Part shown: piece after piece, positions 19,847 to 49,845 of the stretch
How the letters are laid out: every line of letters begins with the position of its first letter
How positions within the stretch are numbered: the stretch's first letter is position 1
Assembly: GCF_058153355.1 (NCBI RefSeq)
Contig: NZ_CM177019.1
DNA length: 64,000 bases
Reading direction: 5' to 3' (one strand)
Notes under the pieces: generated by a model
Database searches by the model: none
The model's input: only the letters and a program-made list of their open reading frames with translations
Told to the model about the DNA's origin: nothing
Translations under genes and position numbers: made by a program

Positions 19847-20530
19847 ATGAAACTGTTGATTGTCGAAGATGAAAAGAAAACCGGAGAATACTTGACCAAA
19901 GGGTTAACCGAAGCCGGTTTTGTGGTCGATTTGGCCGACAACGGGCTGAATGGCTACCATCTGGCGATGACCGGAGATTATGACCTGATAATCCTCGATA
20001 TTATGCTGCCGGACGTGAACGGCTGGGATATCGTGCGCATGTTGCGCTCCGCCAATAAAGGGATGCCGATTCTGTTGCTTACCGCGCTTGGCACCATTGA
20101 ACATCGCGTCAAGGGGCTGGAGTTGGGGGCAGATGACTACCTGGTGAAACCGTTCGCTTTTGCTGAACTGCTGGCGCGGGTGCGGACTCTACTGCGTCGC
20201 GGGGCGGCGGTGATTATCGAAAGTCAGTTTCAGGTTGCCGATTTAATGGTTGATCTGGTCAGCCGCAAAGTCACCCGCAGCGGCACGCGCATCACTTTGA
20301 CCACAAAAGAATTTACCCTGCTGGAATTTTTCCTCCGCCATCAGGGCGAAGTGCTGCCCCGCTCGCTTATCGCCTCGCAGGTGTGGGACATGAATTTCGA
20401 CAGCGACACTAACGCCATTGATGTGGCGGTGAAGCGGCTGCGCGGCAAAATCGACAACGACTTTGAGCCAAAGCTAATTCAGACCGTGCGCGGCGTAGGC
20501 TATATGCTTGAGGTGCCGGATGGCCAGTAA
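19847..20530 (+). CDS. cusR: Copper-responsive two-component response regulator CusR (OmpR family), 227 aa
   Basis: 227-aa [28 protein letters not shown]; receiver plus winged-helix domains. Confidence 0.95.
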
Positions 20531-21968
20531 GCCGTTTCAGCGCCCGTTTTCGCTGGCAACCCGCCTGACCTTTTTTATCAGCCTTGCCACCATTGCAGCG
20601 TTTTTCGTCTTTGCCTGGATCATGATCCACTCGGTAAAAGTGCATTTTGCCGAGCAGGATATTAATGATTTAAAAGAGATTAGCGCCACATTCAGGCGTG
20701 TTCTTAATCATCCCGAAGAGACACAAGCCCGACGCTTAATGACGCTGGAAGATATCGTCAGTGGTTATTCCAACGTGTTGATTTCTCTGACAGATAGCCA
20801 CGGCAAAACGGTGTATCACTCCCCCGGTGCGCCGGATATCCGCGAGTTTGCACGTGATGCCATACCCGATAAAGACGCTCGGAGCGGCGAGGTATATCTC
20901 CTTTCCGGCCCAACAAAGATGATGCCAGGCCACGGTCACGGGCATATGGAACACAGCAACTGGCGGATGATTAGCTTGCCGGTTGGCCCGCAGGTGGATG
21001 GCAAACCGATTTATACGCTCTACATCGCGCTGTCTATCGATTTTCATCTTCATTACATTAATGATTTGATGAATAAACTTATTATGACCGCATCGATCAT
21101 CAGCATCCTGATCGTCTTTATCGTGCTGCTGGCGGTACATAAAGGCCACGCGCCAATTCGCAGCGTCAGCCGTCAAATCCAGAACATTACCTCGAAAGAT
21201 CTCGACGTTCGCCTCGATCCACAGACCGTGCCGATTGAGCTGGAACAACTGGTACTGTCGTTCAACCATATGATCGAGCGTATTGAAGATGTCTTTACCC
21301 GCCAGTCCAATTTCTCAGCGGATATCGCTCACGAAATTCGTACGCCGATTACGAATCTTATAACGCAAACGGAAATTGCCCTCAGCCAGTCGCGCAGCCA
21401 GAAGGAGCTGGAAGATGTGCTCTACTCTAATCTCGAAGAGCTGACGCGAATGGCGAAAATGGTCAGCGATATGCTGTTTCTCGCCCAGGCCGATAACAAC
21501 CAGTTAATCCCCGAAAAGAAAATGCTCAACCTGGCGGATGAAGTCGGCAAAGTGTTCGATTTTTTCGAGGCATTAGCGGAAGATCGTGGCGTGGTGCTGC
21601 GGTTTGTTGGCGACGAATGTCAGGTTGCGGGCGATCCGCTGATGCTGCGTCGGGCGTTAAACAACCTGCTTTCTAATGCCTTGCGTTATACGCCACCCGG
21701 AGAGGCAATTTTAGTGCGCTGCCAGACGGTCGATCACCTGGTGCAAGTTACCGTCGAAAACCCTGGTACGCCCATTGCGCCTGAGCACTTACCGCGATTG
21801 TTTGACCGTTTCTACCGCGTTGATCCTTCCCGCCAGCGAAAAGGTGAAGGTAGCGGCATTGGGCTGGCGATAGTGAAATCAATTGTTGTCGCGCATAAAG
21901 GCACGGTTGCGGTAACGTCAGATGCGCGGGGGACAAGGTTTGTTATCGGGCTACCGGAGAGGGAGTGA
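20520..21968 (+). CDS. cusS: Copper/silver sensor histidine kinase CusS
   Basis: ORF track 20508..21968; ATG at 20520 gives [29 protein letters not shown]-box [11 protein letters not shown]; overlaps cusR end by 11 nt. Confidence 0.93.
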
Positions 21969-22325
21969 TTGGTCAGATAATGCAGTGGATGTTAATTGAA
22001 TTGAGAATTAGCTATTTCGTCACGAGAAAAAGCGTAAAATCCGTTTCGTGCAGATGGTGAGTTTTATCAGGGTATGGCGGTAGCGCAACTGTCTTTGGAT
22101 AATATATGTGATATGAATACATACCCCTAACAACTTCACTAACTAAATACTTAGTTTAGTTATATTAATTTGCATAATACAAACTCATCACCACGATATG
22201 TCATATATTTATAGTCAGCAATCTGGATATATTATTATATAAATGCCATATGGAAATAAAAATTATTATTTAATTCAATATGTAAATTTTACTCTTAACT
22301 ATTTTCGCAGGATAAACCAGCCTCT

Positions 22326-22772
22326 ATGAATATGACTAAAAAAGAAGCATTAGCATTCCTTGCTCTAAATCAACCTATGCCTAATGATTATGACATCACT
22401 CAGGAACTTATCGATAAATATGACGACGTAAGACTTTATTTTTGTGCAAATCCTGCTGAAGAGGCCATACCGTTATTTTTACAATCCTTTGGGGAAGGTG
22501 ATGGCTTAGGAGTATATCAGTTGGTCGAAGATTTTTTGTACAAGTGTGATAAAAACATTGTAGCTTCAAATATAGCCAACATACTGGAAAATCCTCTGAC
22601 AATAAAAAGTGTCCGATATTGGTGTACATTATTAGCAATGGCTTTTCCCGATAACACCTTAATTAAAGGATTAAATATTTCTCTACAATCTGATGATGAA
22701 GATACCCGAGACATGGCTATGTTAAGTTTAAAGATGATTACAGAGGAATATAAAACATTTGAATTCCAATAA
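22326..22772 (+). CDS. Hypothetical acidic 148-aa protein in an AT-rich islet between cusS and nfrB; no family assignable from sequence alone
   Basis: Uninterrupted 148-aa ORF (MNMTKKEALAFLALNQPMPNDYDITQELIDKYDD...) in a ~1.2 kb stretch of about 30-35% GC; helical/acidic composition; no obvious Shine-Dalgarno sequence, so coding status is uncertain. Confidence 0.45.
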   Translation: MNMTKKEALAFLALNQPMPNDYDITQELIDKYDDVRLYFCANPAEEAIPLFLQSFGEGDGLGVYQLVEDFLYKCDKNIVASNIANILENPLTIKSVRYWCTLLAMAFPDNTLIKGLNISLQSDDEDTRDMAMLSLKMITEEYKTFEFQ

Positions 22773-23213
22773 TTCCCCCTTGCATAAAAGATCACCATCA
22801 TGACAAAAACACAAGCAAAGTTGCTTATTTATAAAGCATTTGTTATTTTAACGTTCATTATTTCCCGGTTGAATATTAAACTTAATTAATCTAAAGAGAA
22901 ATGAAGTTAGCCTTCCTGTACCCACAGCAACGCCGTCTTTTTGTTCAGCACGGGGAAAATGTTCTCCCCTGCTCACCTCCTCCAGGCACTTCCACAACAT
23001 GATGACCTGATCGGTTGCCGCCTATCCTCCTCACTAAGACCTTCACCTCCGCGCTTTTGCCTACATCCTGCACAATCGGCAACTTTTATAACCAGTGTAA
23101 AAATAACGTGCCGCAATAATCCTACCTATTAATGATAAAAAGCTGTCACAATTCATAAAAAACTTTAATATACGCCACCCTAAACATAACCAGCGTTAAT
23201 GTAAGGTTTTTGT

Positions 23214-32789: not shown

Positions 32790-35399
32790 TTATGAGCCAG
32801 GATGTGTGCAAACTGCCGAAATAACAGTGACGGCTTGCTGTAAGCTTTGCTTCGGCAATACATAGTGCGCAATGCAGCGTGAGTTCGCGCCGTCTCCCCA
32901 CTGAACCAGTAATTCACCAGACAATGGCGCACCACTTAAATAAACTTGCCCGTCATCACCCACCATACTGGTTATTCCGGTACTGTTTTCCCGTACCAGT
33001 GATCCAAACGGCACCGGTTTTCCGCCCTGGGTAACGGTAATGAGCGCCCGCACGCCTATGCGGGTATCAAAATTGGCACGAACCAACGCGCCTTGCGTCG
33101 GCACAACGCTGCTAATATTTTTTTCAACATCGATGGAATTCCCCATCGTATTGGTATCAAGCGCGATACGGTTATACCGATAAACCGTGGCATACGGCAT
33201 CACCGCATAGCCGCGCCAGTCGGTTAAAATTCCAGTTTGATTTTCAACGCGTACACCGCCTGCGCCAGGCGCTTTAATCAAAACATTGGTATCCCCTAAA
33301 GGCTGGCTCAGCGTTATACCATTTTCATGCCCGACCACACCGCCAGACAGCTGCCAGTTAACGTCATGTTGATCGCGGTCGTAGTTATACCCGACCCCCA
33401 GCGTACCGTAAGCGGCCTGCCAGTTTGCCGTGGCGCTGCCCGTGTACCCATTATTCGAGGTATCGCCCTGGCTTACGTGATAACTCAGGTTGTGGCCTTC
33501 CAGTAAGGTCCCACCAACGCCTGCCAGCCAGCTATTTTGCCCGTTGCTGTTACGGTTGGCGTTAAAGGAGGCATAAGCGCGATCGAGCGCATTTTCCCGG
33601 GTGTAGCGACGTTTGGTCAGAACATTGAAAGGCACTGAAACATTAAGTCCGACAATACGTTCGTTATCGGGGATCCCTACAGATTCATTCCACGAAAATG
33701 AGAGTGAATAACTGATGCCAACCCAGCTGCTGGTATACCCCACCTGATACCAGGTATCTGAATCCGAAGTATTCCAGTATTTTTGATGGGTACCAGAAAT
33801 ATAAAGCGAGCCAAAGTCATTAAGTGATTGTGAAATATTTAACTGCAAACGGTCTTTACGACTAAAGCGTAAATTGTGGTAATTCACGATTATCGGTTCA
33901 TCGCGATGCTCACCGTCATAATCGTAATCATATTCGTACCCCTCCATTCGACGATACGCAACATCATCAAGGGTATAAAAACCTTGTGTCGAATAGCGGT
34001 AACCCATTAACTGAAAATTGGTGCCGAAAGTGTTCATTGATTTCGCATAGAGGAAGCGAATGGAATCCCCCTCATGACGACTGTCGTCGGCTAACTGACT
34101 GCGCGCATGCGTTACATCCAGCGACACTGCGCCCCAGTTCCCGAGGTTGCGCCCCAGCCCTAACAAAAAGGCGGTGTAATTTGCAGATAATTGCGTCCCG
34201 CCGTAGGCAGTAAATTCCTGTGGTAAACCGCCGAGTGCCGTGCCCTGAAAAAAGAAAGGCGACGATTGCTGACTATTACCGCTACGAAAATCGCCCGCCG
34301 TCAGGTCAAATTTGAAACGCCCTTCGCGTTGTAAAATTGGCACTGTTGAATACGGAATAGTGTAATTCTGCTGATTACCATCGCGCTCGTCGATGGTGAC
34401 GTCCAGATCGCCATTTGAAGATGTCGGGTGCAAATCTGTAATTTCGAAAGCGCCGGGGGAAACATAGCTTTGATAGATAATAAAACCATTTTGCCGAATC
34501 GTTAGCTGGGCCGCCGTACGGGCAATCCCACGTACCGTTGGGGCAAACCCTTGCTGGCTATCTGGATACATATTATCAGAAGAATAAAGCCGTACACCGC
34601 GAAATCCGACGCCATCGAAAATATCACTCCCTGTATTACCGTCTCCCATTACCAGTTCACTTTTCAGCGGAATAATGGCGCGCTGTACCCAGGTGCCAAT
34701 ATTATTCCACTGTTCTGAATGATATCCATTTCCGCGAAAATAGTTCCAGGAACCATTGTTGCGTAAACGCCACGGGCCAATATTAATCCCACTGAGTTCA
34801 CTAAAAAAATAGCTATCGTTACTATTACCTCTGTTACCGGTGAAATTATAATTCAGGAGTAAAGCAGGAATACCTTCATCCCACTCTTCAGGCGGAATGT
34901 AACCGTGAGCGCTACTCAACAACGCTATCTGAGGAATAGTGATGTTCAGGCGCATCGCTGCAAAATCAAAGTTAATTGTGGCATCAGGTACAGCTTTCAG
35001 TAAATTAATGCATTTATTATTTTGCTGCTGGGCTAACTCGGGGAATGCACTGCTATTAAGGCCAATTCGTTCAAGGAGTGCCTGGTTAAAACAAGGCATT
35101 AATCCACCTGATTTATCACCTGTATTTACTGTCGTCGATTCAAATACGATATCCTGTGAACCAATGAACTCATCATTACGCCAGAGATCCACCCGATACA
35201 CACCCGCAGGTTGATGATTACCTCTCTCAAAGCGCGATAAATCAGCAACGGATGTGCCATTCTCTAATAAAAATGCCGGGTTGAAATAACTTTCCGCATA
35301 GCTTAAAAAGGAGGGTAAAATGGCAAGAGATGAATAACAAATTCCGGCCAGACACCAGGTATACCTCTGCGGAATATCCGTAATAGTGGGTATTTTCAT
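32790..35399 (-). CDS. sfmD: Fimbrial outer-membrane usher SfmD
   Basis: 869-aa ORF, typical usher size; synteny between chaperone and adhesin genes. Confidence 0.92.
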
Positions 35400-35429
35400 A
35401 ATTAGCTCTGATATTGTCAGATGATTCGG

Positions 35430-36122
35430 TTAGTTTAAGTTCACTTCTCTGACCGGGGTTACTGAACCATAATCATTAACGGTCTGAAATTTCAGCTTTC
35501 CCTGTACTCCTGAGGGTAAGGGAATTTGTGAATTAACTCTGGGTGCAGCCATAGCATTCCCCAACTTTTGGCTGCCCACTTGCAGGTTAACCAGGGTGAC
35601 ATAAAAAGGTGATGGATTATGAACATTGATATAGTTACCGGATCGCGAAAACTTGAGTGTGTCCGGCGCTTCTGCGGGTAATTCTTGTAGTTGAATTGGA
35701 CGGAGAAATAACTTCATGCGCGATAAAATCGCCAGTTGCAAAACATTCCTGCCGTTCAATGCATTTTTATCTACCGAAGGGATCGTCTTAACATTCATCC
35801 AGAACAAAGACTCACGATCTGCCGCCAGCGGTGGACCGGTGTAAATAATACGCAAGGTATTTTCGCTTTTGGGTTCACTAACAAACAGTGGCGGTGTAAT
35901 GATGAATGACTTTTCTTTTACACCGCTACTGTTTTCAATCCACGAATTGACCAGAAAGCGCTCATTGGTATGGCTATTTCTAATCCATACCGCAGTCTGT
36001 TTAGCATCGGCGGGATAAATAATACGCGTGGCACCTAATGCGATCCCTCCGGCAGCATGGGCGCTGGCCGAAATGATTAAATAAAATATAATGGGCATCA
36101 ATAACTTTATTTTAGTCATCAT
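35430..36122 (-). CDS. sfmC: Periplasmic fimbrial chaperone SfmC, 230 aa
   Basis: 230-aa ORF with signal peptide and PapD-like features. Confidence 0.92.
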
Positions 36123-36341
36123 AGTTAATACGCCTTGTGTATTCCTGACGGCAAAAATAAGGAGTATAAAGAAATGATTGCTTTGGTTTATTACAACACA
36201 TCATTCCCTTTTCATTTAATAAAGCGGCATGATACAAAGTGAGCGTGATTTCGATTTACATTGCCACCATACCGCTTCAGACAACCGGTACATTACTTTG
36301 TTATAAGACGTGATATATAATTCAAAACTACGTAGTTTTGA

Positions 36342-36884
36342 TTATTCGTATCTCATAATAAAAGTCGCGTCAGCATTTGCTTGCCCTGCTGATGCACTTG
36401 TACCGGTGCCTTTATAACGCGCAGAAAAATGAAGAACGTTGGTCCCGGGGATCAAGTTCTGGTTGGTTGAGAAGCTATTCCCATCAGGTTTGAGAATTGC
36501 GGATGTATTATCAAGTATTTCAATACCGACACCCGTTGCTGTTGTTGTATTGGTACTGGATGCAATGGCCAATAAATTATCATTGATTGCATCCGCCTGA
36601 CCAGAAAATGCAACGGCAGCATTAGCGGCAACAACAGGATCGCAGTCGTTCAACTGTATAGTGAATGGAATTAATGCAGAGGTATTACCAACAGCATTGA
36701 AAATATCGGTACGATATTGACCGAGTGTGACAACCTGGTCTGCCGAGTCAGTATTCACTGAACAGGCAGCATTCACCAGTTCGCCTTCAAAGTGAATTGT
36801 ACCGCCATCTACAACGGCAGCATAACTACCCGTAGCGGCTAATAGTGCGGCAGCCAGCGCAGACGAAATAAATCTTAATTTCAT
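36342..36884 (-). CDS. sfmA: Fimbrial major subunit SfmA (type 1-like pilin), 180 aa
   Basis: ORF track 36342..36917; ATG at 36884 gives [22 protein letters not shown] signal peptide; pilin-like C-terminus. Confidence 0.9.
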
Positions 36885-37355
36885 ATATATTCCTTCAATC
36901 TCATTTATCGACTCCACATCCGTATATAACCGATTACTTTATTTAAGACACTGATAGTAGTAAAATTCCTTTTTATCCTCTAAGAATGTCTTAATTGAAA
37001 ATATGCACTCTATTCTAAAAAATAGAGAGCCCCGTTAGATGAATATTTCCGCGCAAAATATATTCAACACAAATATAGACCTGAAGCGGTAAATTACCAG
37101 GCTGAAAATTCTTTTTATATTGTCAGGTATTTCTTAAATTATCTTAATCCTTAGACAAGGAAATAAATCAGTTCCAGATTTACAACGTCATCATGGACGA
37201 AAAATGAAGCTTTCAATCTCAGCGACGGTGCGCCTCACCTTCGCAAGAGGTCGCTTCACGCGATAAATCTGAAACGAAAACTGACAGCACGCCCCGCTTC
37301 TGACAAAATAGGCGCATCCCCTTCGACCTACGTAACAGATGGAATCCTCTCTCTG

Positions 37356-38222
37356 ATGGCAGCAAAGATTATTGACGGTAAAACGATTGCGCAGCAGGTG
37401 CGCTCTGAAGTTGCTCAAAAAGTTCAGGCACGTATTGCAGCTGGACTGCGGGCACCAGGACTGGCCGTAGTACTGGTGGGTAGCAACCCTGCATCGCAAA
37501 TTTATGTCGCAAGCAAACGCAAAGCTTGTGAAGAAGTCGGGTTCGTCTCCCGTTCTTATGACCTCCCGGAAACCACCAGCGAAGCGGAGCTGCTGGAGCT
37601 TATCGATGCGCTGAATGCCGACAACACCATTGATGGCATTCTGGTCCAACTGCCGTTACCGGCGGGTATTGATAACGTCAAAGTGCTGGAACGAATTCAC
37701 CCGGACAAAGACGTTGACGGTTTCCATCCTTATAACGTCGGTCGTCTATGCCAGCGCGCGCCGCGTCTACGTCCTTGCACCCCGCGTGGGATCGTCACAC
37801 TGCTTGAGCGATACAACATTGATACCTTCGGTCTTAACGCCGTGGTGATTGGCGCATCGAATATCGTCGGTCGCCCAATGAGCATGGAACTGTTGCTCGC
37901 AGGTTGCACCACCACCGTGACTCACCGCTTCACTAAAAATCTGCGTCATCACGTAGAAAATGCCGATCTATTGATCGTTGCCGTCGGTAAGCCAGGCTTT
38001 ATTCCCGGTGACTGGATCAAAGAAGGCGCAATTGTGATTGATGTCGGCATCAACCGTCTGGAAAATGGCAAAGTTGTGGGCGACGTCGTGTTTGAAGACG
38101 CGGCTAAACGCGCCTCATACATTACGCCTGTTCCGGGCGGCGTTGGCCCGATGACGGTTGCCACGCTGATTGAAAACACGCTACAGGCGTGCGTTGAGTA
38201 TCATGATCCACAGGGTGAGTAA
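37356..38222 (+). CDS. folD: Bifunctional methylenetetrahydrofolate dehydrogenase/cyclohydrolase FolD, 288 aa
   Basis: 288-aa [26 protein letters not shown]; highly conserved. Confidence 0.96.
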
Positions 38223-38223
38223 C

Positions 38224-38436
38224 ATGGCGACATTTTCTTTAGGTAAACATCCGCACGTTGAGCTGTGCGACTTGCTGAAACTGGAAGGCTGGAGCGAAAG
38301 CGGCGCGCAGGCGAAAATCGCGATTGCCGAAGGCCAGGTGAAAGTCGACGGCGCGGTTGAAACGCGCAAACGCTGCAAAATCGTCGCCGGTCAGACAGTG
38401 AGTTTTGCAGGTCACAGCGTACAGGTTGTTGCCTGA
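38224..38436 (+). CDS. ybcJ: S4-domain RNA-binding protein YbcJ, 70 aa
   Basis: ATG at 38224 gives MATFSLGKHPHVELCDLLKLEGW; immediately after folD. Confidence 0.85.
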   Translation: MATFSLGKHPHVELCDLLKLEGWSESGAQAKIAIAEGQVKVDGAVETRKRCKIVAGQTVSFAGHSVQVVA

Positions 38437-38543
38437 TCCCTTTCCCGGCCTGTATCAACAGGCCGGTTCTCTTTTCAGACTTTTGCCCTCTACGCCCCGT
38501 TCATCCATGCTGATAGCATCGACATTTTGCCGAAGCGACCATC

Positions 38544-39065
38544 ATGCCAACCGTTATTACGCACGCCGCCGTTCCCCTTTGCATTGGTTTAGGGTTGGGT
38601 TCGAAAGTCATCCCTCCGCGCCTGTTATTTGCCGGAATCATCCTGGCGATGCTGCCCGATGCTGATGTATTGACATTTAAATTTGGCGTTGCTTACGGCA
38701 ATGTTTTTGGTCATCGCGGGTTCACCCATTCGCTGGTGTTTGCGTTTGTTGTCCCGCTGTTATGTGTGCTGATTGGACGTCGATGGTTCAGGGCTGGGCT
38801 GATTCGCTGCTGGCTGTTTTTAACCGTTTCGTTGCTATCGCACAGCTTGCTGGATTCGGTAACCACTGGCGGTAAAAGCGTTGGCTGGCTGTGGCCGTGG
38901 TCAGATGAACGCTTTTTCGCTCCCTGGCAGGTGATTAAAGTCGCGCCGTTTGCATTGTCTCGTTACACCACGCCGTACGGGCATCAGGTGATTATTTCTG
39001 AATTGATGTGGGTGTGGTTGCCGGGGATGCTACTGATGGGAATGTTGTGGTGGCGCAGACGATAA
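38544..39065 (+). CDS. ybcI: Inner-membrane protein YbcI (metal-dependent hydrolase-like), 173 aa
   Basis: 173-aa hydrophobic ORF; synteny. Confidence 0.85.
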   Translation: MPTVITHAAVPLCIGLGLGSKVIPPRLLFAGIILAMLPDADVLTFKFGVAYGNVFGHRGFTHSLVFAFVVPLLCVLIGRRWFRAGLIRCWLFLTVSLLSHSLLDSVTTGGKSVGWLWPWSDERFFAPWQVIKVAPFALSRYTTPYGHQVIISELMWVWLPGMLLMGMLWWRRR

Positions 39066-39089
39066 CCGGATGCGAAAACTCGCATCCGG
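39066..39089. terminator. Bidirectional terminator hairpin between convergent ybcI and cysS
   Basis: Perfect 9-bp stem ccggatgcg-aaaact-cgcatccgg. Confidence 0.55.
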
Positions 39090-39100
39090 CAATAGCGCAA

Positions 39101-40486
39101 TTACTTACGACGCCAGGTGGTCCCTTGCGGGCCATCTTCCAGCACGATCCCCATCTCGTTAAGACGGTCACGCGCCGCATCTGCCGCCGCCCAGTCTTTC
39201 GCTTTACGGGCATCCAGACGCTGTTGAATTAACGCTTCAATCTCAGCCACTTCGCTGTCGTCTGCCTGCGCGCCGCTTTGCAGGAACGCTTCCGGTTCTT
39301 GCTCCAGCAGGCCCAATACAGCGGAAAGTTTACGCAGGTGAGATGCCATTGCATTCGCCGCTGCCATATCTTCTGCTTTCAGACGGTTCACTTCACGCGC
39401 CATATCAAACAGCACGGAATAGGCTTCCGGGGTGTTGAAATCGTCGTCCATCGCTTCAATAAAGCGCGCTTCAAACGCTTCACCACCCGCAGGAGCAACG
39501 GTTTTATCTGTGCCGCGCAGCGCAGTGTAGAGACGCTCCAGTGCCGCACGCGCCTGCTTCAGGTTCTCTTCGCTGTAGTTCAGCTGGCTGCGATAGTGCC
39601 CCGACATCAGGAAGTAACGCACGGTTTCGGCATCGTAGTATTTCAGCACATCGCGCACGGTAAAGAAGTTACCCAGCGATTTGGACATCTTCTCTCGGTC
39701 AACCATTACCATCCCCGAGTGCATCCAGTAGTTCACATACTGGCCATCATGGGCACAGGTGGACTGCGCGATTTCGTTCTCGTGGTGCGGGAACATCAGG
39801 TCAGAACCGCCGCCGTGGATATCAAAGTGGTTACCCAGCTGCTTGCAGTTCATTGCCGAACATTCAATGTGCCAGCCTGGACGGCCCGCGCCCCACGGAG
39901 ACGGCCAGCTCGGTTCGCCCTCTTTCGACATCTTCCACAGAACGAAGTCCATCGGGTTGCGTTTGTCGTCGACCACGTCAACGCGCGCGCCTGCCTGCAG
40001 CTGGTCGAGATCCTGACGCGACAGCACGCCATAAGTTGGATCGGTCGGTACGTCGAACATCACGTCGCCGTTGTCCGCCACATAAGCGTGACCTTTGGCG
40101 ATCAGTTGTTCAGTGAGTTCAATAATTTCTGCGATATGGTGCGTCGCGCGCGGCTCCATATCCGGGCGCAGAATGTTCAAAGCATCAAAATCTTTGTGCA
40201 TTTCGGCGATCATGCGATCCACCAGCGCTACAAAGCTTTCGCCATTTTCATTGGCACGCTTGATGATTTTGTCGTCGATATCGGTAATGTTGCGCACATA
40301 CTTCAGCTTATAGCCGAGGAAACGCAGATAGCGCGCAACCACGTCAAAGGCAACAAAGGTACGCCCGTGACCGATATGACAGAGATCGTAAACGGTGATT
40401 CCACACACGTACATGCCGACTTCCCCGGCGTGAATAGGCTTAAATTCCTCTTTTTGGCGTGTCAGAGTATTGAAGATTTTTAGCAT
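39101..40486 (-). CDS. cysS: Cysteinyl-tRNA synthetase CysS, 461 aa
   Basis: 461-aa [18 protein letters not shown] with HIGH ([13 protein letters not shown]) and KMSKS motifs. Confidence 0.97.
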
Positions 40487-40659
40487 CGAAGATTCCGTTT
40501 AGACATGTGTGGGTAATTGAGTTGCGTATAATACCCATATTTCCCGCGCGAATCAGCATACATTGCGTGATGATCCGATCGTGCGGTTATGCTATAACAC
40601 CACCCTATATATGACCCGAATCGGGTTGAAGCACCAATCAAACGGAACAGGATGCAAAA

Positions 40660-41154
40660 ATGGTTACTTTCCACACCAATCACGGCGATATTGTCATCAA
40701 AACTTTTGACGATAAAGCACCTGAAACAGTTAAAAACTTCCTGGACTACTGCCGCGAAGGTTTTTACAACAACACCATTTTCCACCGTGTTATCAACGGC
40801 TTTATGATTCAGGGCGGCGGTTTTGAGCCAGGCATGAAGCAAAAAGCCACCAAAGAACCGATCAAAAACGAAGCCAACAACGGTCTGAAAAATACCCGTG
40901 GTACGCTGGCAATGGCCCGTACTCAGGCACCGCACTCTGCAACTGCACAGTTCTTCATCAACGTGGTTGATAACGACTTCCTGAACTTCTCTGGCGAAAG
41001 CCTGCAAGGTTGGGGTTACTGCGTGTTTGCTGAAGTGGTTGAAGGCATGGACGTGGTTGACAAAATCAAAGGTGTAGCAACCGGTCGTAGCGGTATGCAC
41101 CAGGACGTGCCAAAAGAAGACGTTATCATTGAAAGCGTGACCGTTAGCGAGTAA
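40660..41154 (+). CDS. ppiB: Peptidyl-prolyl cis-trans isomerase B (cyclophilin) PpiB, 164 aa
   Basis: 164-aa [30 protein letters not shown]; cyclophilin fold. Confidence 0.96.
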
Positions 41155-41156
41155 TC

Positions 41157-41879
41157 GTGGCGACACTCTTTATTGCAGATCTTCATCTCTGCGCGGAAGA
41201 ACCGGCGATCACCGCCGGTTTTCTGCGTTTTTTAGCGGGGGAAGCCCGCAAGGCCGACGCGCTGTATATTCTTGGCGATCTGTTTGAAGCATGGATTGGC
41301 GATGACGATCCCAACCCACTCCATCGCCAGATGGCCGCAGCGATCAAAGCGGTGTCCGATTCCGGTGTTCCCTGTTATTTCATTCATGGCAACCGTGATT
41401 TTCTGCTCGGCAAACGCTTTGCCCGTGAAAGTGGCATGACGTTATTGCCGGAAGAAAAGGTGCTCGAACTTTATGGTCGCCGGGTGTTGATTATGCATGG
41501 CGACACGCTGTGCACCGATGACGCGGGTTATCAGGCTTTTCGCGCCAAAGTCCACAAACCCTGGCTGCAAACGCTATTCCTCGCCCTGCCGTTGTTTGTG
41601 CGTAAACGCATTGCCGCGCGAATGCGCGCGAACAGCAAAGAAGCCAACAGCAGTAAATCGCTGGCGATCATGGACGTTAACCAAAACGCGGTGGTCAGTG
41701 CGATGGAAAAACATCAGGTGCAATGGCTGATCCACGGGCATACCCATCGCCCGGCGATCCATGAACTTATCGCCAATCAGCAACCTGCTTTCCGCGTCGT
41801 GCTGGGAGCCTGGCATACGGAAGGTTCAATGGTGAAAGTCACGGCGGATGACGTTGAGCTGATTCATTTTCCGTTTTAA
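41157..41879 (+). CDS. lpxH: UDP-2,3-diacylglucosamine hydrolase LpxH, 240 aa
   Basis: 240-aa [14 protein letters not shown] with calcineurin-like phosphoesterase motifs; 2-nt gap after ppiB. Confidence 0.94.
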
Positions 41880-41995
41880 ATACCCGCAACTTTGCTGATT
41901 TCACAGCCACGCAACCGTTTTCCTTGCTCTCTTTCCGTGCTATTCTCTGTGCCCTCTAAAGCCGAGAGTTGTGCACCACAGGAGTTTTAAGACGC

Positions 41996-42505
41996 ATGTC
42001 TTCCCGCAATAATCCGGCGCGTGTCGCCATCGTGATGGGGTCCAAAAGCGACTGGGCTACCATGCAGTTCGCCGCCGAAATCTTCGAAATCCTGAATGTC
42101 CCGCACCACGTTGAAGTGGTTTCTGCTCACCGCACCCCCGATAAACTGTTCAGCTTCGCCGAAAGTGCCGAAGAGAACGGTTATCAGGTGATTATTGCTG
42201 GCGCAGGCGGCGCAGCGCACCTGCCGGGCATGATTGCCGCCAAAACGCTGGTGCCAGTGCTGGGTGTGCCAGTACAGAGCGCCGCACTGAGCGGTGTCGA
42301 TAGCCTCTACTCCATCGTACAAATGCCGCGCGGCATTCCGGTGGGTACGCTGGCGATTGGTAAAGCTGGCGCGGCAAACGCGGCGTTACTGGCAGCACAA
42401 ATTCTTGCAACTCATGATAAAGAACTGCACCAGCGTTTGAATGACTGGCGCAAAGCCCAGACTGATGAAGTGCTGGAAAACCCGGACCCGCGAGGTGCGG
42501 CATGA
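41996..42505 (+). CDS. purE: N5-carboxyaminoimidazole ribonucleotide mutase PurE, 169 aa
   Basis: ORF track 41969..42505; ATG at 41996 gives [20 protein letters not shown]. Confidence 0.96.
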
Positions 42506-43569
42506 AACAGGTTTGCGTCCTCGGTAACGGGCAGTTAGGCCGTATGTTGCGCCAGGCAGGCGAACCGTTAGGCATTGCTGTCTGGCCGGTCGGGCTGGAC
42601 GCTGAACCGGCGGCGGTGCCCTTTCAACAAAGCGTGATTACCGCTGAGATCGAACGCTGGCCGGAAACCGCATTAACGCGCGAGTTGGCACGCCATCCGG
42701 CCTTTGTGAACCGCGATGTGTTCCCAATTATTGCCGACCGTCTGACTCAGAAGCAGCTTTTCGACAAGCTTCACCTGCCGACCGCACCGTGGCAGTTACT
42801 TGCCGATCGCAGTGAGTGGCCTGCAGTGTTTGATCGTTTAGGTGAACTGGCGATTGTTAAGCGTCGCACTGGTGGCTATGACGGTCGCGGTCAATGGCGT
42901 TTACGCGCCGATGAAACCGCACAGTTACCGACTGAATGCTACGGCGAATGTATTGTCGAGCAGGGCATTAACTTCTCTGGCGAAGTATCGCTGGTTGGCG
43001 CGCGCGGCTTTGATGGCAGCACTGTGTTTTATCCGCTGACGCATAACCTGCATCAGGACGGTATTTTGCGCACCAGCGTCGCTTTCCCGCAGGCCAACGC
43101 ACAGCAGCAGGCGCAGGCCGAAGAGATGCTGTCGGCGATTATGCAGGAGCTGGGCTATGTTGGCGTGATGGCGATGGAGTGTTTTGTCACCCCGCAAGGT
43201 CTGCTGATCAACGAACTGGCTCCGCGTGTACATAACAGTGGTCACTGGACGCAAAACGGTGCCAGCATCGGCCAGTTTGAGCTGCATCTGCGGGCAATTA
43301 CCGATCTGCCGTTACCGCAACCGGTGGTCAATAGCCCGTCAGTGATGATCAACCTGATTGGTAGCGATGTGAACTATGACTGGCTGAAACTGCCGCTGGT
43401 GCATCTGCACTGGTACGACAAAGAAGTGCGTCCGGGCCGTAAGGTGGGGCATCTGAATTTGACCGACAGCGACACATCGCGTCTGACCGCAACGCTGGAA
43501 GCTTTAATCCCGCTGCTGCCGCCAGAGTATGCCAGCGGCGTGATGTGGGCGCAGAGTAAGTTCAGTTAA
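42502..43569 (+). CDS. purK: N5-carboxyaminoimidazole ribonucleotide synthase PurK, 355 aa
   Basis: 355-aa ATP-grasp [19 protein letters not shown]; start overlaps purE stop (ATGA). Confidence 0.96.
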
Positions 43570-43584
43570 CCTGGTACTCATATT

Positions 43585-43790
43585 CCTGCCGGATGCGGCG
43601 TGAACGCCTTATCCGGCCTACTAATCCGGTACCCATTGTAGGCCTGATAAGAGGCGTCAAGCGTCGCATCAGGCATGGTGCGCCGATTACCGGATGCGGC
43701 GTGAACGCCTTATCCGACTACCAATCCGGTACCCATTGTAGGCCTGATAAGAGGCGTCAAGCGTCGCATCAGGCATGGTGCGCCATATGC
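43585..43790. repeat. BIME/REP cluster: two ~100-bp direct repeats each containing inverted REP elements
   Basis: ccggatgcggcgtgaacgccttatccg...gtaggcctgataagaggcgtcaagcgtcgcatcaggcatggtgcgcc occurs twice in tandem between convergent purK and ybcF. Confidence 0.75.
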
Positions 43791-43802
43791 TGGATGCTCC
43801 CA

Positions 43803-44699
43803 TCACGACAGCGAAATACAGGTCCCCGCTTCGCCCGCCAGCGTCTCTTCAATCCGCGATAACGCCCCAATCCACGCAGGTTTACCACGGCTTCTGACAT
43901 AGCCACTCACCGCCGTTACCTTCGGTCCCATCGCCCCATCGGCTTTGGCAAATGGCGCTAACTCATCCGGTGTGGCATGGGGAATGGCGCGTTGCTGCGG
44001 CGTTCCCCAGTTTTCATAAACCGCATCAGCATCGGTGAGGATCACCAGTCCATCGGCATTAATCTGCTCGGCAAGCAACGCCGCGGCGAGATCTTTATCA
44101 ATCACCGCTTCACTCCCTGCTCCGTCATCCGTCACCGGAACACCGCCGCCGCCACTGCAAATCACCACATGCCCCTCTTTGAGCAACAACTCGATGGCTT
44201 CGCTGTCGAGAATTTTACGAGGCTGGGGAGATGCCACCACCCGGCGTAAATATTTGCCATCACGCTTCATTTGCCAGCCGTAAGTCGTTTCCAGTGCCTC
44301 TTGTTCTTCTGGCTGATAAACCGGGCCGATAAACTTCTCTGGCTGCAAAAACGCCGGATCATCAGGCGAAACTTCAATGCGCGTCAGCATCGTCGTGACA
44401 GGCGGCATCTGCGGCTGTGCGCTCAAGCTCTGCGCCAGCATATAGCCAATCATCCCCTGGCTTTCCGCCACCAGCACATCCAGCGGATACGGTTCTACCT
44501 CTTTCCACGCCAGATTCTGTAACGCCAGCAGCCCCACCTGTGGCCCGTTGCCGTGAACAATCGCCAGCCGATAAGAACGGGCCAGGCGCGCCAGTGCGGG
44601 TACAGCACTGGCAATGTTGCGATATTGATTTTCTGCCGTCAGCGCTTCGCCGCGCTGGAGTAAGGCGTTGCCCCCAAGAGCCACAACCAGTGTTTTCAT
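43803..44699 (-). CDS. ybcF: Carbamate kinase-like protein YbcF (ArcC family)
   Basis: 298-aa [21 protein letters not shown], amino-acid kinase family; synteny with ylbF-ylbE-fdrA. Confidence 0.88.
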
Positions 44700-45511
44700 G
44701 GTGTTCCTTGTAATAATTGTTGACCAAGCCAGAACCCCAGCAGCGTATCTGCCCCTGACGTATGCCCCAGCGCCAGCAGCGAATCAATCGCAACAGCGGT
44801 ACGTTTCGGGCAACTCAGAGCATGAACAAAGTGCAGGAGTGGCGAGGCGAAATATCCTTGCGCGGCGTAACGTAAATAATTAACGCTCACCGCCGTGGTA
44901 ACGAGTTGAAGATTGTCGGAACAGGCAAAAAACGGGCGACCGGAGCGCGCATCTAAAGCGCCAAAATACCAGGCCGCCAGCAGCATTCCGCTCAGCGTGT
45001 CATCATGACTCGGCGTTAATCCCGGCCCTTTACCCAGCCAGTGCCGCCAGTCGGTCTTAACGCCATTGAGCGCGGCCTGAAAACAGTGACGAAACTGGCG
45101 TAATTCAGCGGGAAGCGGATCGCCTGCCGCCAACGCCAGCGGCCCGAAAAGCCCGGTTTCCTCCGCGCGTTGCATCCATGCCGCTGCAAGCGGTTGAGGA
45201 TGCGCAGGCGGCGTAATACGCAGCAAACAATAACGCTGTGGCTGTTTAACCGTGAAACGCCCGAGGCGAATCCCTTGAGCCATAACCTGCGGTCGTTCAT
45301 TGCCGCATAATCCACCGCATAACGCATCGAATTGTGCGCGGCGAAGCACCCATCCTCCGGGACCGAAACCACTTCCCTGACGATGTAGCGTTAACAGTTC
45401 GCCGCTTTCTGTCAGCAGATTAATCGCCCGCCGCCAGATGCCCGCTAACCGCCAGGACTGGCGATAGTCAGGTGCACTACGACTGGCAAGCAGAGGATGG
45501 ATGATCGTCAT
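44696..45511 (-). CDS. ylbF: Uncharacterized protein YlbF (DUF2877), 271 aa
   Basis: ORF track 44696..45604; internal ATG at 45511 ([16 protein letters not shown]) gives 271 aa; 4-nt overlap with ybcF. Confidence 0.82.
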
Positions 45512-45521
45512 TGCGCGTTCC

Positions 45522-46781
45522 TCAACCAATCCCCATGCTTTCAGCCAGAGCTTCCAGCGCCTGTTCAAAGCACGCCAGCGGTGCCCGCACAGTGCCTGCG
45601 CCAATCTGCCCGATCCCCGCCTCTTTATGGGCGATACCCGTATTGATGAGTGGTGTAATGCCGGTTTCTACCACGCGACGAATATCCAGCCCCAGACACG
45701 CGCCCTGGAAATCCCAGCCAGGGATCTGCAACTGCATATTGCGCTCAAGGAAGATTTCTGCCATCTCTTCAGATACAGCTCTGGCTGCTTCCATACCACC
45801 TGCACCGACAAAGCGTGTTACGCCAGGGGCGGCGATCATTGCCGCACCACCGATACCAAAGGTTTCGGTAATCGCGCTATCGCCCATATCCGGGTTCGCC
45901 TGCACCTGCGAGAAGCCGGTGAAAAACAGACCTTGGGGAGTGTTTACAGGCGCAGTAAACCAGCGTTCGCCCAGCCCGCTGACCCGAATCCCGAACATAC
46001 TGCCGTTGCGGGTCATAGCCGTAACGATGCTGCCTGCGCGGATCATCGCACCAGTATCCATCGCCGCCTTGCAGTAAGCCATCGCGAGGTTAAGGAAGAA
46101 CTGATCGGTCACGCTGAGGAAATCCATCACTTCCGCAATGTGCTGTTTATCATGATCGAGGCGAGCAATTTGTGGGGCCAGCGCACGCATTAACAGTGCT
46201 GAGGAAGCAATATTGCGTTGATGAAACTCATCGCCCATCGTAATGCCCTGCGCCATCATCGCCGTGAGATCGATACCGCGCTCCATGCGCCCCAGCGCCG
46301 CGCTTAATACTGGCATTAACACATCGCGCATCCAGCGATGGCGAGTCAGGACATCTTCGCCGTAAGCGCCAAAACGCATCACTTTACCGATACCTTCATT
46401 GAGGTTGCAGTACGCCCGGTTACCGTCGGTCACGTTCTCGACCACCAGCATCGGCATACTGGCAGAAGTAATTCCGCCCATTGGCCCGACGGCATTCACA
46501 TGGTGACAAGGAATGAAGTTCACTTCCCCCTGCTCCAGCATCGCCAGTGCCTGCGCTTCATCTTTCGCCCAGCCTTCAAACAGACACGCACCCACGCACG
46601 CCCCTTTCATGGGGCCGGTCATCTCCTGCCAGCGCATCGGCGGCCCGGCGTGAAGCAGTGTTTTGCCCGGGTGTAGTTCACTGATAAGTGAAGAAGCCGG
46701 TTGCACATCCAGCCAGTGTGGACGAGCGCGACGAATTTGTTCGATAACCGCAGCATTGGCTTGCGCCACTGATGTAAACAT
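45522..46781 (-). CDS. ylbE: Uncharacterized protein YlbE (DUF1116), 419 aa, intact
   Basis: Uninterrupted 419-aa [26 protein letters not shown]; synteny. Confidence 0.85.
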
Positions 46782-46790
46782 GGGAACCCC

Positions 46791-48458
46791 TTATTGCAAA
46801 CGTTCTAATAAACGAGCCAGTTTTTTATTGCCGCCAGCGACTGGTGACCATTGGTAATGCACAACCGGTTTGCTGGCGCTTTGTAGTTCCAGCGCAAAGC
46901 TGCGTAATCCGATGTTAATCACGGCGACGTTTTCCAGTAGTGACGGTGTGTGTTGCTGTGTGGCAGGCGAGAGCGGATGAATTAACGCCGCCGCCAGCAA
47001 GGTGGCTTCCGGCAGCGAACTCACTACCGCGATCCCTGCATCTTCCAGCGTGGCGATTTGTTGCGAGCGGCATTGCGGGTCACGTTCAGTGCCTGTCACT
47101 GTGGCAATGGCATACAGTGGTTGATTGTCTGAACGCGCGGCACAGGCTTTTTGCCAGGCGCTTACCAGCGAGGCTGCAGGATCGGCAGTCGCACCGAAGC
47201 CAATCACCACATCAAGCAGCAATACGCGCACTTGCGCTTTAGCGCCGAGATCGGCAATTAACTGGTTGCGTAAGGTTGGGTCGATCATCGGATGGGGACG
47301 CCCGACGGTGTAGAAATCATCGCCGAGGTCAATGATCTGGTGACCATCGGCGTCCAGCATCATGCCGTGATGATGGGCATCGTCGGCTACCACGCCAAGA
47401 TGCCTGGCAAGTAATCCCGCCGCTTCGGCGGCCAGCGTACCGCCGGTATACAAGCCGCAAATAAGTCCGCTGCTGGCAGGCGCTATCGCGTTACGTCGCG
47501 CCGTAACGCGTGAAAGCAGGCAAGCCAGACGCGCGGCCTCATCCAGCGAGGAGGCAAACCAGACATTCTCGTCGCGGGCCACCGCCGGGATATAACCTAA
47601 AAACAGCGCCACCGTTGGTTTGCCGGTTGCTTTCATGGCATTAACAATTTTCAGACGCACAGCTTCGGCAGGCGGTTTTGAAACAAACGCCAGCACTTCG
47701 CTTTTCTCATCTACACTGAGCATTTCCAGCGCCGTTAGCGCACTGATGCCGCCCACGTCACGGCTGAGGTCGCGCCCGCCAAGACCAATCGCGTGAGTAA
47801 TTCCCTCACCTGCCAGTGCAATCTGCGAACACAGTTCCTGAATCCCGGTACCGGAAGCGCCAATGACGCCAATGTTGCCTTCCGGCATCACGTTAGCAAA
47901 AGCCAGCGGCGTGGCGGCAATCATCGATGTACCGCAGTCCGGCCCCATCACCAGCAAACCTTTTTCCCGCGCGCGGGTTTTAAGTTGGATTTCATCTTCC
48001 AGCGTGACGTTATCGGAGAACATCATCACGTTGAGGTTGCGATCCAGCGCCTGGTTCGCCAGTTCCGCCGCATACTCGCCAGCCACTGAAATCAGCGCCA
48101 GATTGGCATTGGGTAATTTCTGACTGGCACTGTCCCAGCGACGTACCTGCGTCAACGCCTGGCTGCTGCCTGTACCCTGTGCCAGTTGTTTTAGCGCCTC
48201 TTCAAGCTGCCGCATAATCGCCTGCGCGATCCCTGCATCCGCCGCTTCGCTACGAATCGCCACGCAAATATCGTTCGGCGTGGCGTGATTAAAATCGTCA
48301 TGCCAGAAACCTGTAGTCTCTAATAACGCTTTATTGGCGGGCGTACCCATCATTACGGAAACATCATCAACATTTTCTGATTCGCTGAGTTTTCGTGAAA
48401 TAATCATTAAACTGACCGAATCCTGAAAACACCCTTTTTTAATAAAGGCGTGGATCAT
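46791..48458 (-). CDS. fdrA: FdrA (acyl-CoA synthetase NDP-forming-like / CoA-binding), 555 aa
   Basis: 555-aa ORF MIHAFIKKGCFQDSVSLMIISRKL; succinyl-CoA-synthetase-like domains; synteny. Confidence 0.88.
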   Translation of the reverse strand: MIHAFIKKGCFQDSVSLMIISRKLSESENVDDVSVMMGTPANKALLETTGFWHDDFNHATPNDICVAIRSEAADAGIAQAIMRQLEEALKQLAQGTGSSQALTQVRRWDSASQKLPNANLALISVAGEYAAELANQALDRNLNVMMFSDNVTLEDEIQLKTRAREKGLLVMGPDCGTSMIAATPLAFANVMPEGNIGVIGASGTGIQELCSQIALAGEGITHAIGLGGRDLSRDVGGISALTALEMLSVDEKSEVLAFVSKPPAEAVRLKIVNAMKATGKPTVALFLGYIPAVARDENVWFASSLDEAARLACLLSRVTARRNAIAPASSGLICGLYTGGTLAAEAAGLLARHLGVVADDAHHHGMMLDADGHQIIDLGDDFYTVGRPHPMIDPTLRNQLIADLGAKAQVRVLLLDVVIGFGATADPAASLVSAWQKACAARSDNQPLYAIATVTGTERDPQCRSQQIATLEDAGIAVVSSLPEATLLAAALIHPLSPATQQHTPSLLENVAVINIGLRSFALELQSASKPVVHYQWSPVAGGNKKLARLLERLQ

Positions 48459-48774
48459 AACAACTCCTTAAAAATTGCACCCATGGCAATTGCACGAGCA
48501 ATGTTAATGTGGCGATTACGGTATCGATGGATGGTGATAAATAAGGTGATGAATATCACACAGACATTATTAACAAAAGAATTCAAATAACCGCCAGACT
48601 ATTACGCGTTATTTTTTAATAAGCATAGTTGTTTTAAAAACCAGGTTAAAAGCGAGCGGATTATCAAATAAATTCTAACTATATTTTTTTGCCTGTCTGG
48701 ATCACATAATCCAGATATTTTCCCTGTATGTTAATTGCAGTCATGCTTCACACCGTCGTTAAAAAGGAAGACAG

Positions 48775-49824
48775 ATGAAAATCAGTCGGGAAACACTCCA
48801 CCAGCTAATCGAGAATAAACTCTGTCAGGCTGGGTTAAAACGTGAGCACGCTGCAACCGTGGCTGAAGTATTGGTTTACGCCGATGCCAGAGGGATCCAC
48901 TCTCATGGCGCGGTGCGCGTTGAATACTACGCAGAGCGCATATCAAAAGGCGGCACCAACCGCGAACCAGAGTTTCGTCTTGAAGAAACCGGACCGTGCT
49001 CGGCAATTTTACATGCCGACAATGCCGCCGGACAGGTCGCGGCAAAAATGGGTATGGAACATGCCATCAAAACCGCCCAGCAAAAAGGCGTTGCGGTGGT
49101 CGGTATCAGCCGGATAGGTCACAGCGGCGCAATCTCTTATTTTGTGCAGCAGGCAGCCCGCGCCGGATTGATTGGCATTTCGATGTGCCAGTCCGATCCA
49201 ATGGTGGTGCCGTTTGGCGGCGCGGAAATTTACTACGGCACTAACCCACTGGCCTTTGCCGCGCCGGGAGAAGGCGACGAGATCCTTACTTTTGATATGG
49301 CGACTACCGTACAGGCATGGGGAAAAGTGCTCGACGCCCGCTCGCGCAATATGTCTATCCCGGATACCTGGGCGGTCGATAAAAACGGTGCACCAACAAC
49401 CGATCCCTTCGCGGTTAACGCCCTGCTCCCGGCTGCCGGACCGAAAGGTTATGGCCTGATGATGATGATCGACGTCCTCTCAGGCGTCTTACTCGGCTTA
49501 CCGTTCGGGCGTCAGGTCAGTTCGATGTATGACGATTTACACGCCGGACGTAATTTGGGGCAATTACATGTAGTTATTAACCCGAACTTTTTCTCCTCCA
49601 GCGAATTATTCCGTCAACATCTTAGCCAGACCATGCGCGAATTAAATGCCATAACCCCCGCGCCCGGTTTTAACCAGGTTTATTATCCCGGACAGGATCA
49701 GGATATTAAACAACGCAAAGCCGCCGTCGAAGGCATCGAAATTGTTGATGATATTTACCAGTATTTAATTTCCGACGCGCTTTATAACACGTCATACGAA
49801 ACGAAAAATCCCTTTGCGCAATAA
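48775..49824 (+). CDS. allD: Ureidoglycolate dehydrogenase AllD, 349 aa
   Basis: 349-aa ORF MKISRETLHQLIENKLCQAGL; Ldh_2 family. Confidence 0.92.
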   Translation: MKISRETLHQLIENKLCQAGLKREHAATVAEVLVYADARGIHSHGAVRVEYYAERISKGGTNREPEFRLEETGPCSAILHADNAAGQVAAKMGMEHAIKTAQQKGVAVVGISRIGHSGAISYFVQQAARAGLIGISMCQSDPMVVPFGGAEIYYGTNPLAFAAPGEGDEILTFDMATTVQAWGKVLDARSRNMSIPDTWAVDKNGAPTTDPFAVNALLPAAGPKGYGLMMMIDVLSGVLLGLPFGRQVSSMYDDLHAGRNLGQLHVVINPNFFSSSELFRQHLSQTMRELNAITPAPGFNQVYYPGQDQDIKQRKAAVEGIEIVDDIYQYLISDALYNTSYETKNPFAQ

Positions 49825-49845
49825 TTGTTGAGACAGGACTTTCTT

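Follow-up and report, generated by a model that had tools for sequence, protein, structure and literature searches.

Relationship to described effector-immunity systems

The closest described counterparts of the gene considered here are the orphan immunity genes and poly-immunity arrays of Rhs, contact-dependent inhibition (CDI) and type VI secretion system (T6SS) loci (PMC3482391, PMC3150448), where small immunity-family genes occur alone, unaccompanied by the toxin. The subject of this work is a 148-residue open reading frame (ORF) at 22326..22772 (+ strand, ATG start) of a 64-kb stretch of contig NZ_CM177019.1, called the window below, whose positions are used as coordinates throughout. The ORF lies in the spacer between cusS and nfrB and, judged at the level of its family, is very probably an orphan immunity gene of an Rhs/T6SS-type effector-immunity pair. 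Like the known arrays, the locus is a strain-variable island with SUKH, CdiI-like and other immunity genes, Rhs fragments and ISEc1/H-repeat elements, and as in the known systems, cognate copies of the gene elsewhere overlap or nearly abut the gene for a toxin tip. It differs from the arrays in that the window copy is a single-gene remnant, and from known immunity families in that neither the ORF family nor its toxin domain has a Pfam or NCBIfam model. This kind of element, an orphan immunity gene in a degenerate Rhs/poly-immunity island, is already familiar and is no new kind of system; the new part appears to be the family-level assignment, by which a HEAT-like family of immunity proteins and a nuclease-like toxin tip, both without a name so far, are linked in several phyla. 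Searches of the literature for nfrB with cusS and immunity, or for nfrB with Rhs and vgrG, found no papers.

Among T6SS effectors, Tde5 of Pseudomonas aeruginosa is a beta-beta-alpha-metal DNase described in a 2026 paper (PMC13392607; PDB 12FS), and its residues H296, H297 and H327 are required for DNase activity. One of the immunity proteins of Tde5 is HEAT-like: Tdi5a, an all-helical protein of ~160 residues, occludes the Tde5 active site via a large electrostatic interface, and tdi5a overlaps the end of the toxin gene (PMC13392607). HEAT-repeat proteins are known or proposed to act as immunity proteins in other Rhs/T6SS loci as well, and the product of our ORF is alike in this respect to Imm-HEAT (PMC3482391), which is listed with Ntox34 and Tox-REase-7 toxins, to Escherichia coli YibA (PDB 1OYZ) and to SPC1578 of Salmonella Paratyphi C (PMC7400221). 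Membership of the Imm-HEAT/Ntox34/Tox-REase-7 group was considered and rejected, since the partner toxin matches neither toxin family and its motif differs from the Ntox34 motif (PMC3482391). YibA, at 280 residues, gives a marginal match to the profile of our family (E = 0.42). In K-12, yibA presumably lies next to rhsA.

The island that most resembles the fuller forms of this locus is that of enterohaemorrhagic E. coli EDL933, in which the order of genes is vgrG1 (z0707), DUF1795, rhsF (z0705) and rhsG (z0702) (PMC7216683). This order matches the full element found between cusS and nfrB in strain 03_3469, and positions 22968..23064 of the window, which are missing from K-12, are common to strains with that full vgrG-Rhs element, where they lie to the right of ISEc1. 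The window differs from an element of the EDL933/03_3469 type in that it has no VgrG, Rhs or ISEc1, and the Rhs tip of the 03_3469-type element is annotated as a restriction-endonuclease-fold toxin, not as the toxin domain that is linked to our ORF family. We take the EDL933 island to occupy the same cusS-nfrB site, which is an assumption on our part. The description in PMC7216683 makes no mention of cusS.

Linkage of the ORF family to one toxin domain

The core evidence for an effector-immunity pair is the near-perfect linkage of the ORF family to a single toxin domain. In all seven pairs that we checked by hand, the ORF homologue overlaps the toxin gene or starts at most 14 nt after it. The homologue in Vibrio mangrovi (54% identical) starts 1 base past the stop codon of the gene for a 1625-residue Rhs protein, which is preceded by PAAR and DUF4123 genes; that of Snodgrassella overlaps the end of an orphan Rhs C-terminal cassette; and one from a metagenome overlaps the gene for a 2077-residue YD-shell protein. 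Further pairs, in Cronobacter, Yersinia entomophaga and Clostridium, were found from the toxin side. A paralogue of the ORF with 74% nucleotide identity is present in 22 of 5426 complete E. coli genomes, and in strain EC17GD31 it overlaps an IS3-truncated Rhs C-terminus that carries the toxin domain, in a tRNA-Asn island.

An alignment of the toxin domain was also searched against one genome per bacterial and archaeal species, and a hidden Markov model of the ORF family was applied to the flanks of the matches. This species-wide scan returned 26 toxin loci, from Enterobacterales, Gilliamella, Pseudomonas, Clostridia, Bacillus, Bacteroidota, Verrucomicrobia and Planctomycetes, and at 24 of them a member of the ORF family follows 6-57 nt downstream on the same strand (E 1e-33 to 1e-70). 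At one of the two exceptions the toxin is a pseudogene and a recognisable piece of the immunity gene comes after it; the other exception is a toxin fragment of 24 residues. The charges of the partners are complementary, with a pI of 4.25 for the ORF product and of 9.5-10.3 for the toxins, and over the seven hand-checked pairs the pairwise identities of toxins and of immunity proteins are correlated (r = 0.84). Both properties are indirect signs that the immunity protein would bind and neutralise its toxin.

The first-pass annotation, made from the letters of the window, had offered orphan immunity proteins, antitoxins and small defence modules as likely cargo of this DNA. The first of these is supported, the family being placed directly behind one Rhs toxin domain in essentially every toxin locus examined and that toxin not being in the window; the other two found no support. 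The same linkage bears on a quite different explanation, in which the ORF product would be a housekeeping or regulatory HEAT-repeat adaptor with no connection to toxins, acting for example on the Cus or Nfr systems. HEAT repeats are generic scaffolds for the binding of proteins, and the gene stands on the same strand as cusS and nfrB and between them, but homologues are found at unrelated chromosomal sites in other genera, the linkage to one toxin domain holds across several phyla, and 97% of complete E. coli genomes, K-12 among them, lack the gene and have functional cus and nfr genes. We regard an adaptor role as the least probable of the explanations considered, and as extremely improbable.

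Some of the toxin loci have further features. The island of EC17GD31 (locus L018, 945-12021) contains a DUF2169 gene, the Rhs C-terminus with its HEAT immunity gene, and a second orphan pair of Rhs C-terminus and immunity gene; it is the sole place where the toxin was seen in E. coli. In Pseudomonas sp. TH10 (L050, 3001-3462) no intact ORF spans the toxin match, which is a pseudogene, and the first ~37 immunity codons are all that follows; here, within an array of Rhs cassettes, both members of the pair have decayed together. In V. mangrovi (L009, 8525-8731) and Y. entomophaga (L020, 1047-1181 and 4482-4576) the HEAT immunity gene is closely followed, on the other strand, by genes of the SymE_toxin family, and such a neighbour could be recurrent for these Rhs cassettes, or a coincidence.

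The 148-residue protein

The product of the ORF is acidic (pI 4.25, net charge -12.5). The first-pass annotation had seen no recognisable motif in it, and this agrees with our searches, which gave no match in Pfam (even at E <= 10), NCBIfam, PADLOC or PHROGs; a PDB search with the protein as a single sequence gave a chance match at best. Structure prediction, one of the checks proposed at that stage, gave a confident model, an all-alpha solenoid of four HEAT repeats, each an antiparallel pair of helices. The profile of the family matches alphaRep HEAT designs in the PDB at E = 7e-9, and the most distant family members carry Pfam HEAT_2 (PF13646), which the window protein itself does not match.

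A collection of 5.8 billion proteins yielded 40 relatives, from Escherichia, Citrobacter, Cronobacter, Klebsiella aerogenes, Hafnia, Snodgrassella, Gilliamella, Vibrio and an actinomycete. All 20 residues that are invariant in the family are kept in the window protein, and a conserved loop, SFGEGDGLGVYQLVED, occupies its residues 54-69. The SUKH (SMI1-KNR4) superfamily was considered and rejected, as there is no Pfam match and the model is all-alpha as against the alpha+beta fold of SUKH proteins. SUKH genes occur as separate neighbours of the ORF in fuller arrays (L001, L002 and L053-57).

If the two proteins form a pair, the immunity protein would bind the toxin 1:1 and block either its active site or its DNA-binding face. 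The conserved acidic loop (GEGDG.GVYQ.VED), together with the helical surface, could act as a partial charge mimic of DNA. The sole possible use of the gene in this strain would then be a defensive one, protection against toxins of this family delivered into the cell by an adjacent bacterium.

These properties also bear on the suggestion that the ORF encodes an antitoxin paired with a toxin, or a component of a small module for defence against phages. Such modules are common in AT-rich, strain-variable islets, the protein is small and acidic like many antitoxins, and orphan modules of Salmonella Rhs loci are reported to act like type II toxin-antitoxin modules (PMC7043789). However, the islet contains no partner ORF, no PADLOC or PHROGs family is matched (0 families each), the model predicts a pure HEAT solenoid with no DNA-binding domain, and the settings of the homologues are polymorphic-toxin loci or immunity arrays rather than phage or defence regions. 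A toxin-antitoxin or defence module was therefore rejected, for want of a partner gene and of any model match, and we consider it highly improbable.

The partner toxin domain

In the V. mangrovi, Snodgrassella and metagenome proteins, homology extends over the last ~116 residues, following the Rhs DPxGL boundary. The motifs of the domain are GEDLYVGTY, THTPHH..Q.A.S, IN.RK.LH..T.T and a helical tail ending in ..LIRQNK.., and we refer to it as the THTPHH domain. It is found at the C-terminus, after an Rhs PxxxxDPxGL boundary or a PT-HINT domain, in carriers that are Rhs proteins, PAAR/DUF4123-associated proteins or PT-HINT proteins. Among 1.84 billion cluster representatives there are 231 relatives, in proteins of up to 3869 residues, and the domain is always C-terminal. 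A second subfamily, with the pattern TPHH[IV]PS...INMEQP...RHR.TFTYG, is homologous at an hhalign probability of 99.5%; looking up the clusters of these second-tier relatives gave no informative names.

The AlphaFold2 (AF2) model of the toxin has a predicted local distance difference test score (pLDDT) of 87 and shows a strand-strand-helix arrangement formed by E27-31 (HTPHH), E46-51 (ITIN) and H52-55 (..LH). Residues H27, H30, H31, N49 and H55 are invariant in the toxin family. Because a beta-beta-alpha layout with an HH...N...H signature is typical of nucleases of the HNH/EndoVII type, the model points, with rather better than even confidence, to a beta-beta-alpha-metal (HNH-like) DNase. This assignment is drawn from fold and motif, and several results weigh against it. 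A single toxin sequence and 17 members gave no match in Pfam, and in particular no HNH family; PDB sequence searches with the toxin sequence and with two toxin profiles returned the Rhs pre-toxin region or helical noise, and never TseN; and a Foldseek search of the toxin model against the PDB gave nothing significant.

By analogy, the toxin would work most like the TseN/Tde5 type of T6SS DNase. The primers used for mutagenesis of Tde5 encode ..ESHHMPAD.. and ..KADHEQTA.., a layout like that of TPHH...RKDLHELT here (PMC13392607), and it is suggestive of a common superfamily for Tde5 and the THTPHH toxin. Tde5 differs from the present toxin in being a FIX-domain effector and not an Rhs tip, and Tdi5a is reported in Pseudomonas only (PMC13392607). 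The termini of Tdi5a derived from primers (MGKMQRLHMM... and ...PFSDIYYAK), which were the only parts compared, have no similarity to the ORF family, and no Tdi5a chain appeared in our sequence and fold searches of the PDB. TseN of Acidovorax citrulli (PMC12574953; PDB 9J9W) is 17% identical to the toxin, with no profile-level sequence match, and was not recovered by Foldseek; its immunity protein, TsiN, folds as an alpha/beta protein and so differs from the HEAT type (PMC12574953).

Orphan status and maintenance of the gene

No toxin of this family was found when three toxin variants were searched by tblastn against the whole window and loci L001-L003 of E. coli, where nothing scored better than E = 1, and the 357 bp that precede the ORF contain no toxin remnant when translated. 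The gene is therefore classed as an orphan. It is nevertheless intact, and the ratio of nonsynonymous to synonymous substitution rates (dN/dS) among orphan copies is 0.09-0.21: it is 0.18 between the window and the 118UI type (dS 0.11) and 0.09 between the window and E. albertii (dS 0.41), and against the toxin-linked paralogue it is 0.13. These low values indicate a real coding sequence that is under purifying selection with no adjacent toxin.

A second explanation for the ORF is that it is a non-functional relic, the last piece of a decaying Rhs/immunity island to escape deletion, of no benefit to the cell. The surroundings of the gene fit this idea, as what is left of two neighbouring genes lies on either side of the ORF, the window has undergone two deletions (~1.09 kb and ~0.94 kb) in comparison with fuller forms, the whole island is lost in K-12-type strains, no toxin is adjacent, and the signals for translation and transcription are weak. 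Some alleles have also changed at conserved residues. The genome copy most similar to that of the window, in strain 2017-02-2CC (L001, 3001-3447), differs from it by one nucleotide and has the change P17S, P17 being otherwise invariant in the 29-sequence family alignment, and the 118UI-type allele has D30N, D33N, D34N, L61F and Y98C, of which D33 is nearly invariant; judged from these sequences, some orphan alleles may be drifting. Set against a relic are the intact reading frame with every invariant family residue in place, dN/dS values that stay low at a dS of up to 0.41 against E. albertii, the record of the identical protein in 308 blocks of public assemblies, and what looks like selective retention of the gene when both of its neighbours were deleted, although that last pattern is compatible with chance as well as with selection. 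We consider a functionless relic unlikely, though it is the rival with the most in its favour.

The reading of the ORF as an orphan immunity gene has its own difficulties, and the following points weigh against it. Shared phylogeny explains part of the correlation between toxin and immunity identities noted above. Immunity proteins are usually narrow in specificity, and the closest toxin-linked homologue shares just 70% identity with the window protein. Within E. coli the toxin is rare, the linked pair being present in 22 of 5426 genomes. The Shine-Dalgarno match of the ORF, AGGA, lies 13 nt from the ATG, and a promoter and terminator scan found 2 promoter-like sites as against 5.8 expected in shuffled sequence, and no terminator; the sole sigma-70-like match upstream of the ORF, TTTATA-16-TATTAT at 22208..22235 (+), is not above chance. 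The scan is neutral on expression either way. Whether the copy in this strain is expressed and protective is, in our judgement, evenly balanced.

Taken further, the THTPHH toxin and its HEAT-like partner could constitute an undescribed effector-immunity family of Proteobacteria, Firmicutes, Bacteroidota, Planctomycetes and Verrucomicrobia, distantly related to the TseN/Tde5 DNases, of which Escherichia lineages (E. coli, E. albertii and possibly E. fergusonii) would actively maintain a toxin-less copy at cusS-nfrB against enterobacterial Rhs attack; the gene in the window would have been kept for that purpose and the rest of the island discarded. We put this fuller proposal forward tentatively, as a little short of an even chance. 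At the level of the family, a likely function can be given to a "hypothetical protein" that is found in 308 assembly blocks and in ~3% of complete E. coli genomes, and a clean effector-immunity pair for which Pfam and NCBIfam have no model can be defined, with near-perfect gene linkage across several phyla. Orphan immunity genes are thought to shape the survival of contact-dependent attacks in the gut, and this one offers a simple test case: does an immunity gene on its own still protect when its identity to a toxin-linked paralogue of the same species is 70%?

Variability of the cusS-nfrB junction

The spacer extends from 21969 to 23213 (1245 bp), between cusS (20520..21968, +), whose product ends in VIGLPERE as in other island-bearing strains, and nfrB (23214..25451, +), which has a GTG start at 23214. 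In 300-bp windows, GC content is 0.29-0.36 over 22050-22950 as compared with ~0.50-0.57 in cusS and nfrB. The right-hand part of the spacer (22800-23250) has a GC content of 0.41-0.44, so that the strongly AT-rich DNA makes up just ~900 bp. With that reduction in extent, the AT-rich islet described in the first-pass annotation is borne out, as is its single clean ORF of 148 residues: 22326..22772 is the sole spacer ORF of at least 100 codons whose product has homologues, the remaining ones being short or antisense inside the spacer. Its statement that the spacer is shorter in K-12, and the strain variability expected from it, proved correct too. The cusS-nfrB spacer of MG1655 is 149 bp, and the ORF is present in 180 of the 5426 complete E. 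coli genomes (~3%) and missing from 97%.

Comparison by blastn with a K-12-type locus (L003) places the DNA that is extra to the K-12 type, the islet proper, at 21948..23064, where K-12-type strains have 14 bp in its place. The remainder, 23065..23213, is the conserved region upstream of nfrB, which is present in nearly all E. coli. Homology of cusS to the K-12 type ends at 21947, and the left junction of the islet falls inside the 3' end of cusS (21947-21968). CusS accordingly has two C-terminal forms, one of 482 residues ending in LPERE in island-bearing strains, including that of the window, and one of 480 residues ending in TLPA (VITLPA) in K-12-type strains with an empty site. Because these ends differ, it looks as if the final cusS codons at the empty K-12 site were re-made by a deletion or an alternative junction.

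The cusS-nfrB junction is a strain-variable hotspot for Rhs/T6SS toxin-immunity genes: it is empty in K-12, elsewhere it has single orphan immunity genes, and at its fullest it contains a complete vgrG-Rhs element. In strain 2017-02-2CC, whose ORF is 99.8% identical to that of the window, an SMI1/KNR4 (SUKH) gene, a 122-residue gene and the ORF lie between cusS and nfrB. The ~10.9-kb form of strain 118UI (NZ_CP032515.1, 700989-711329) contains a fragment of an HNH/EndoVII toxin-2, two WD40/YVTN-like genes, a PAAR-like gene, two ISEc1 (ISAs1-like) elements, a SUKH-3 gene, the ORF and a 142-residue gene, as well as an unannotated membrane-like ORF of 178 residues (L002, 3969..4505). E. albertii has a 181-residue gene, the ORF and a CdiI_N gene upstream of nfrB. 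Strains 03_3469 and GE3 have complete or degraded forms with VgrG, a DcrB-type chaperone, an Rhs toxin, immunity gene, SUKH-3, an Rhs fragment and ISEc1. The element of 03_3469 (L025, 2078-11990) is a complete one, consisting of VgrG, a DcrB-related chaperone, a 1578-residue Rhs "restriction endonuclease fold toxin" and its immunity gene, and it does not contain the 148-residue ORF.

The 308 blocks of public assemblies in which the exact 148-residue protein is recorded include human gut metagenomes, and in five of the five places shown for contigs that encode the identical protein, from isolate genomes and human gut metagenomes, the arrangement is the three-gene form. The window is therefore a further-reduced derivative of that form. 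A megablast search with the spacer found its full 1245-bp arrangement in none of the 5426 complete E. coli genomes. The best match of window positions 30000-50000 to any of these genomes is 98.5%, and the cusS of the window is ~94% identical to the K-12-type gene, so the window comes from a lineage of E. coli, or from a close relative, that is not closely represented among them.

Remnants within the window

The spacer of the window is a stripped-down remnant of an Rhs toxin/immunity island in which one intact gene is left. Relative to the common three-gene form, in which the SMI1/KNR4 (SUKH) gene and the 122-residue gene precede the ORF, ~1.09 kb is missing between 22149 and 22201 (blastn), with the deletion junction at 22150..22200. 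Just downstream of this junction, 22233..22295 (+) appears to be a degenerate 3' remnant of the 122/181-residue gene that stands upstream of the ORF in the arrays, a weak assignment (tblastn identity 43-56% over ~20 residues, E 0.01-0.03). The remnant on the other side of the ORF is clear. It is a fusion of 29 codons at 22800..22889 (+), whose first 13 codons come from the next gene of the array (142 residues in 118UI) and whose tail consists of the last ~20 codons of the 178-residue ORF; the junction, at 22838/22839, marks a deletion of ~940 bp relative to the 118UI form. For the C-rich stretch at 22900-23080, a role as a small RNA or a regulatory element was considered and rejected, since an Rfam scan of 21800-23400 at E <= 1 gave no match and this stretch is island DNA common to other strains. 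On one of the human gut metagenome contigs (L056, 3889-6117) nfrB is called as two genes, of 390 and 339 residues, and may be a disrupted allele.

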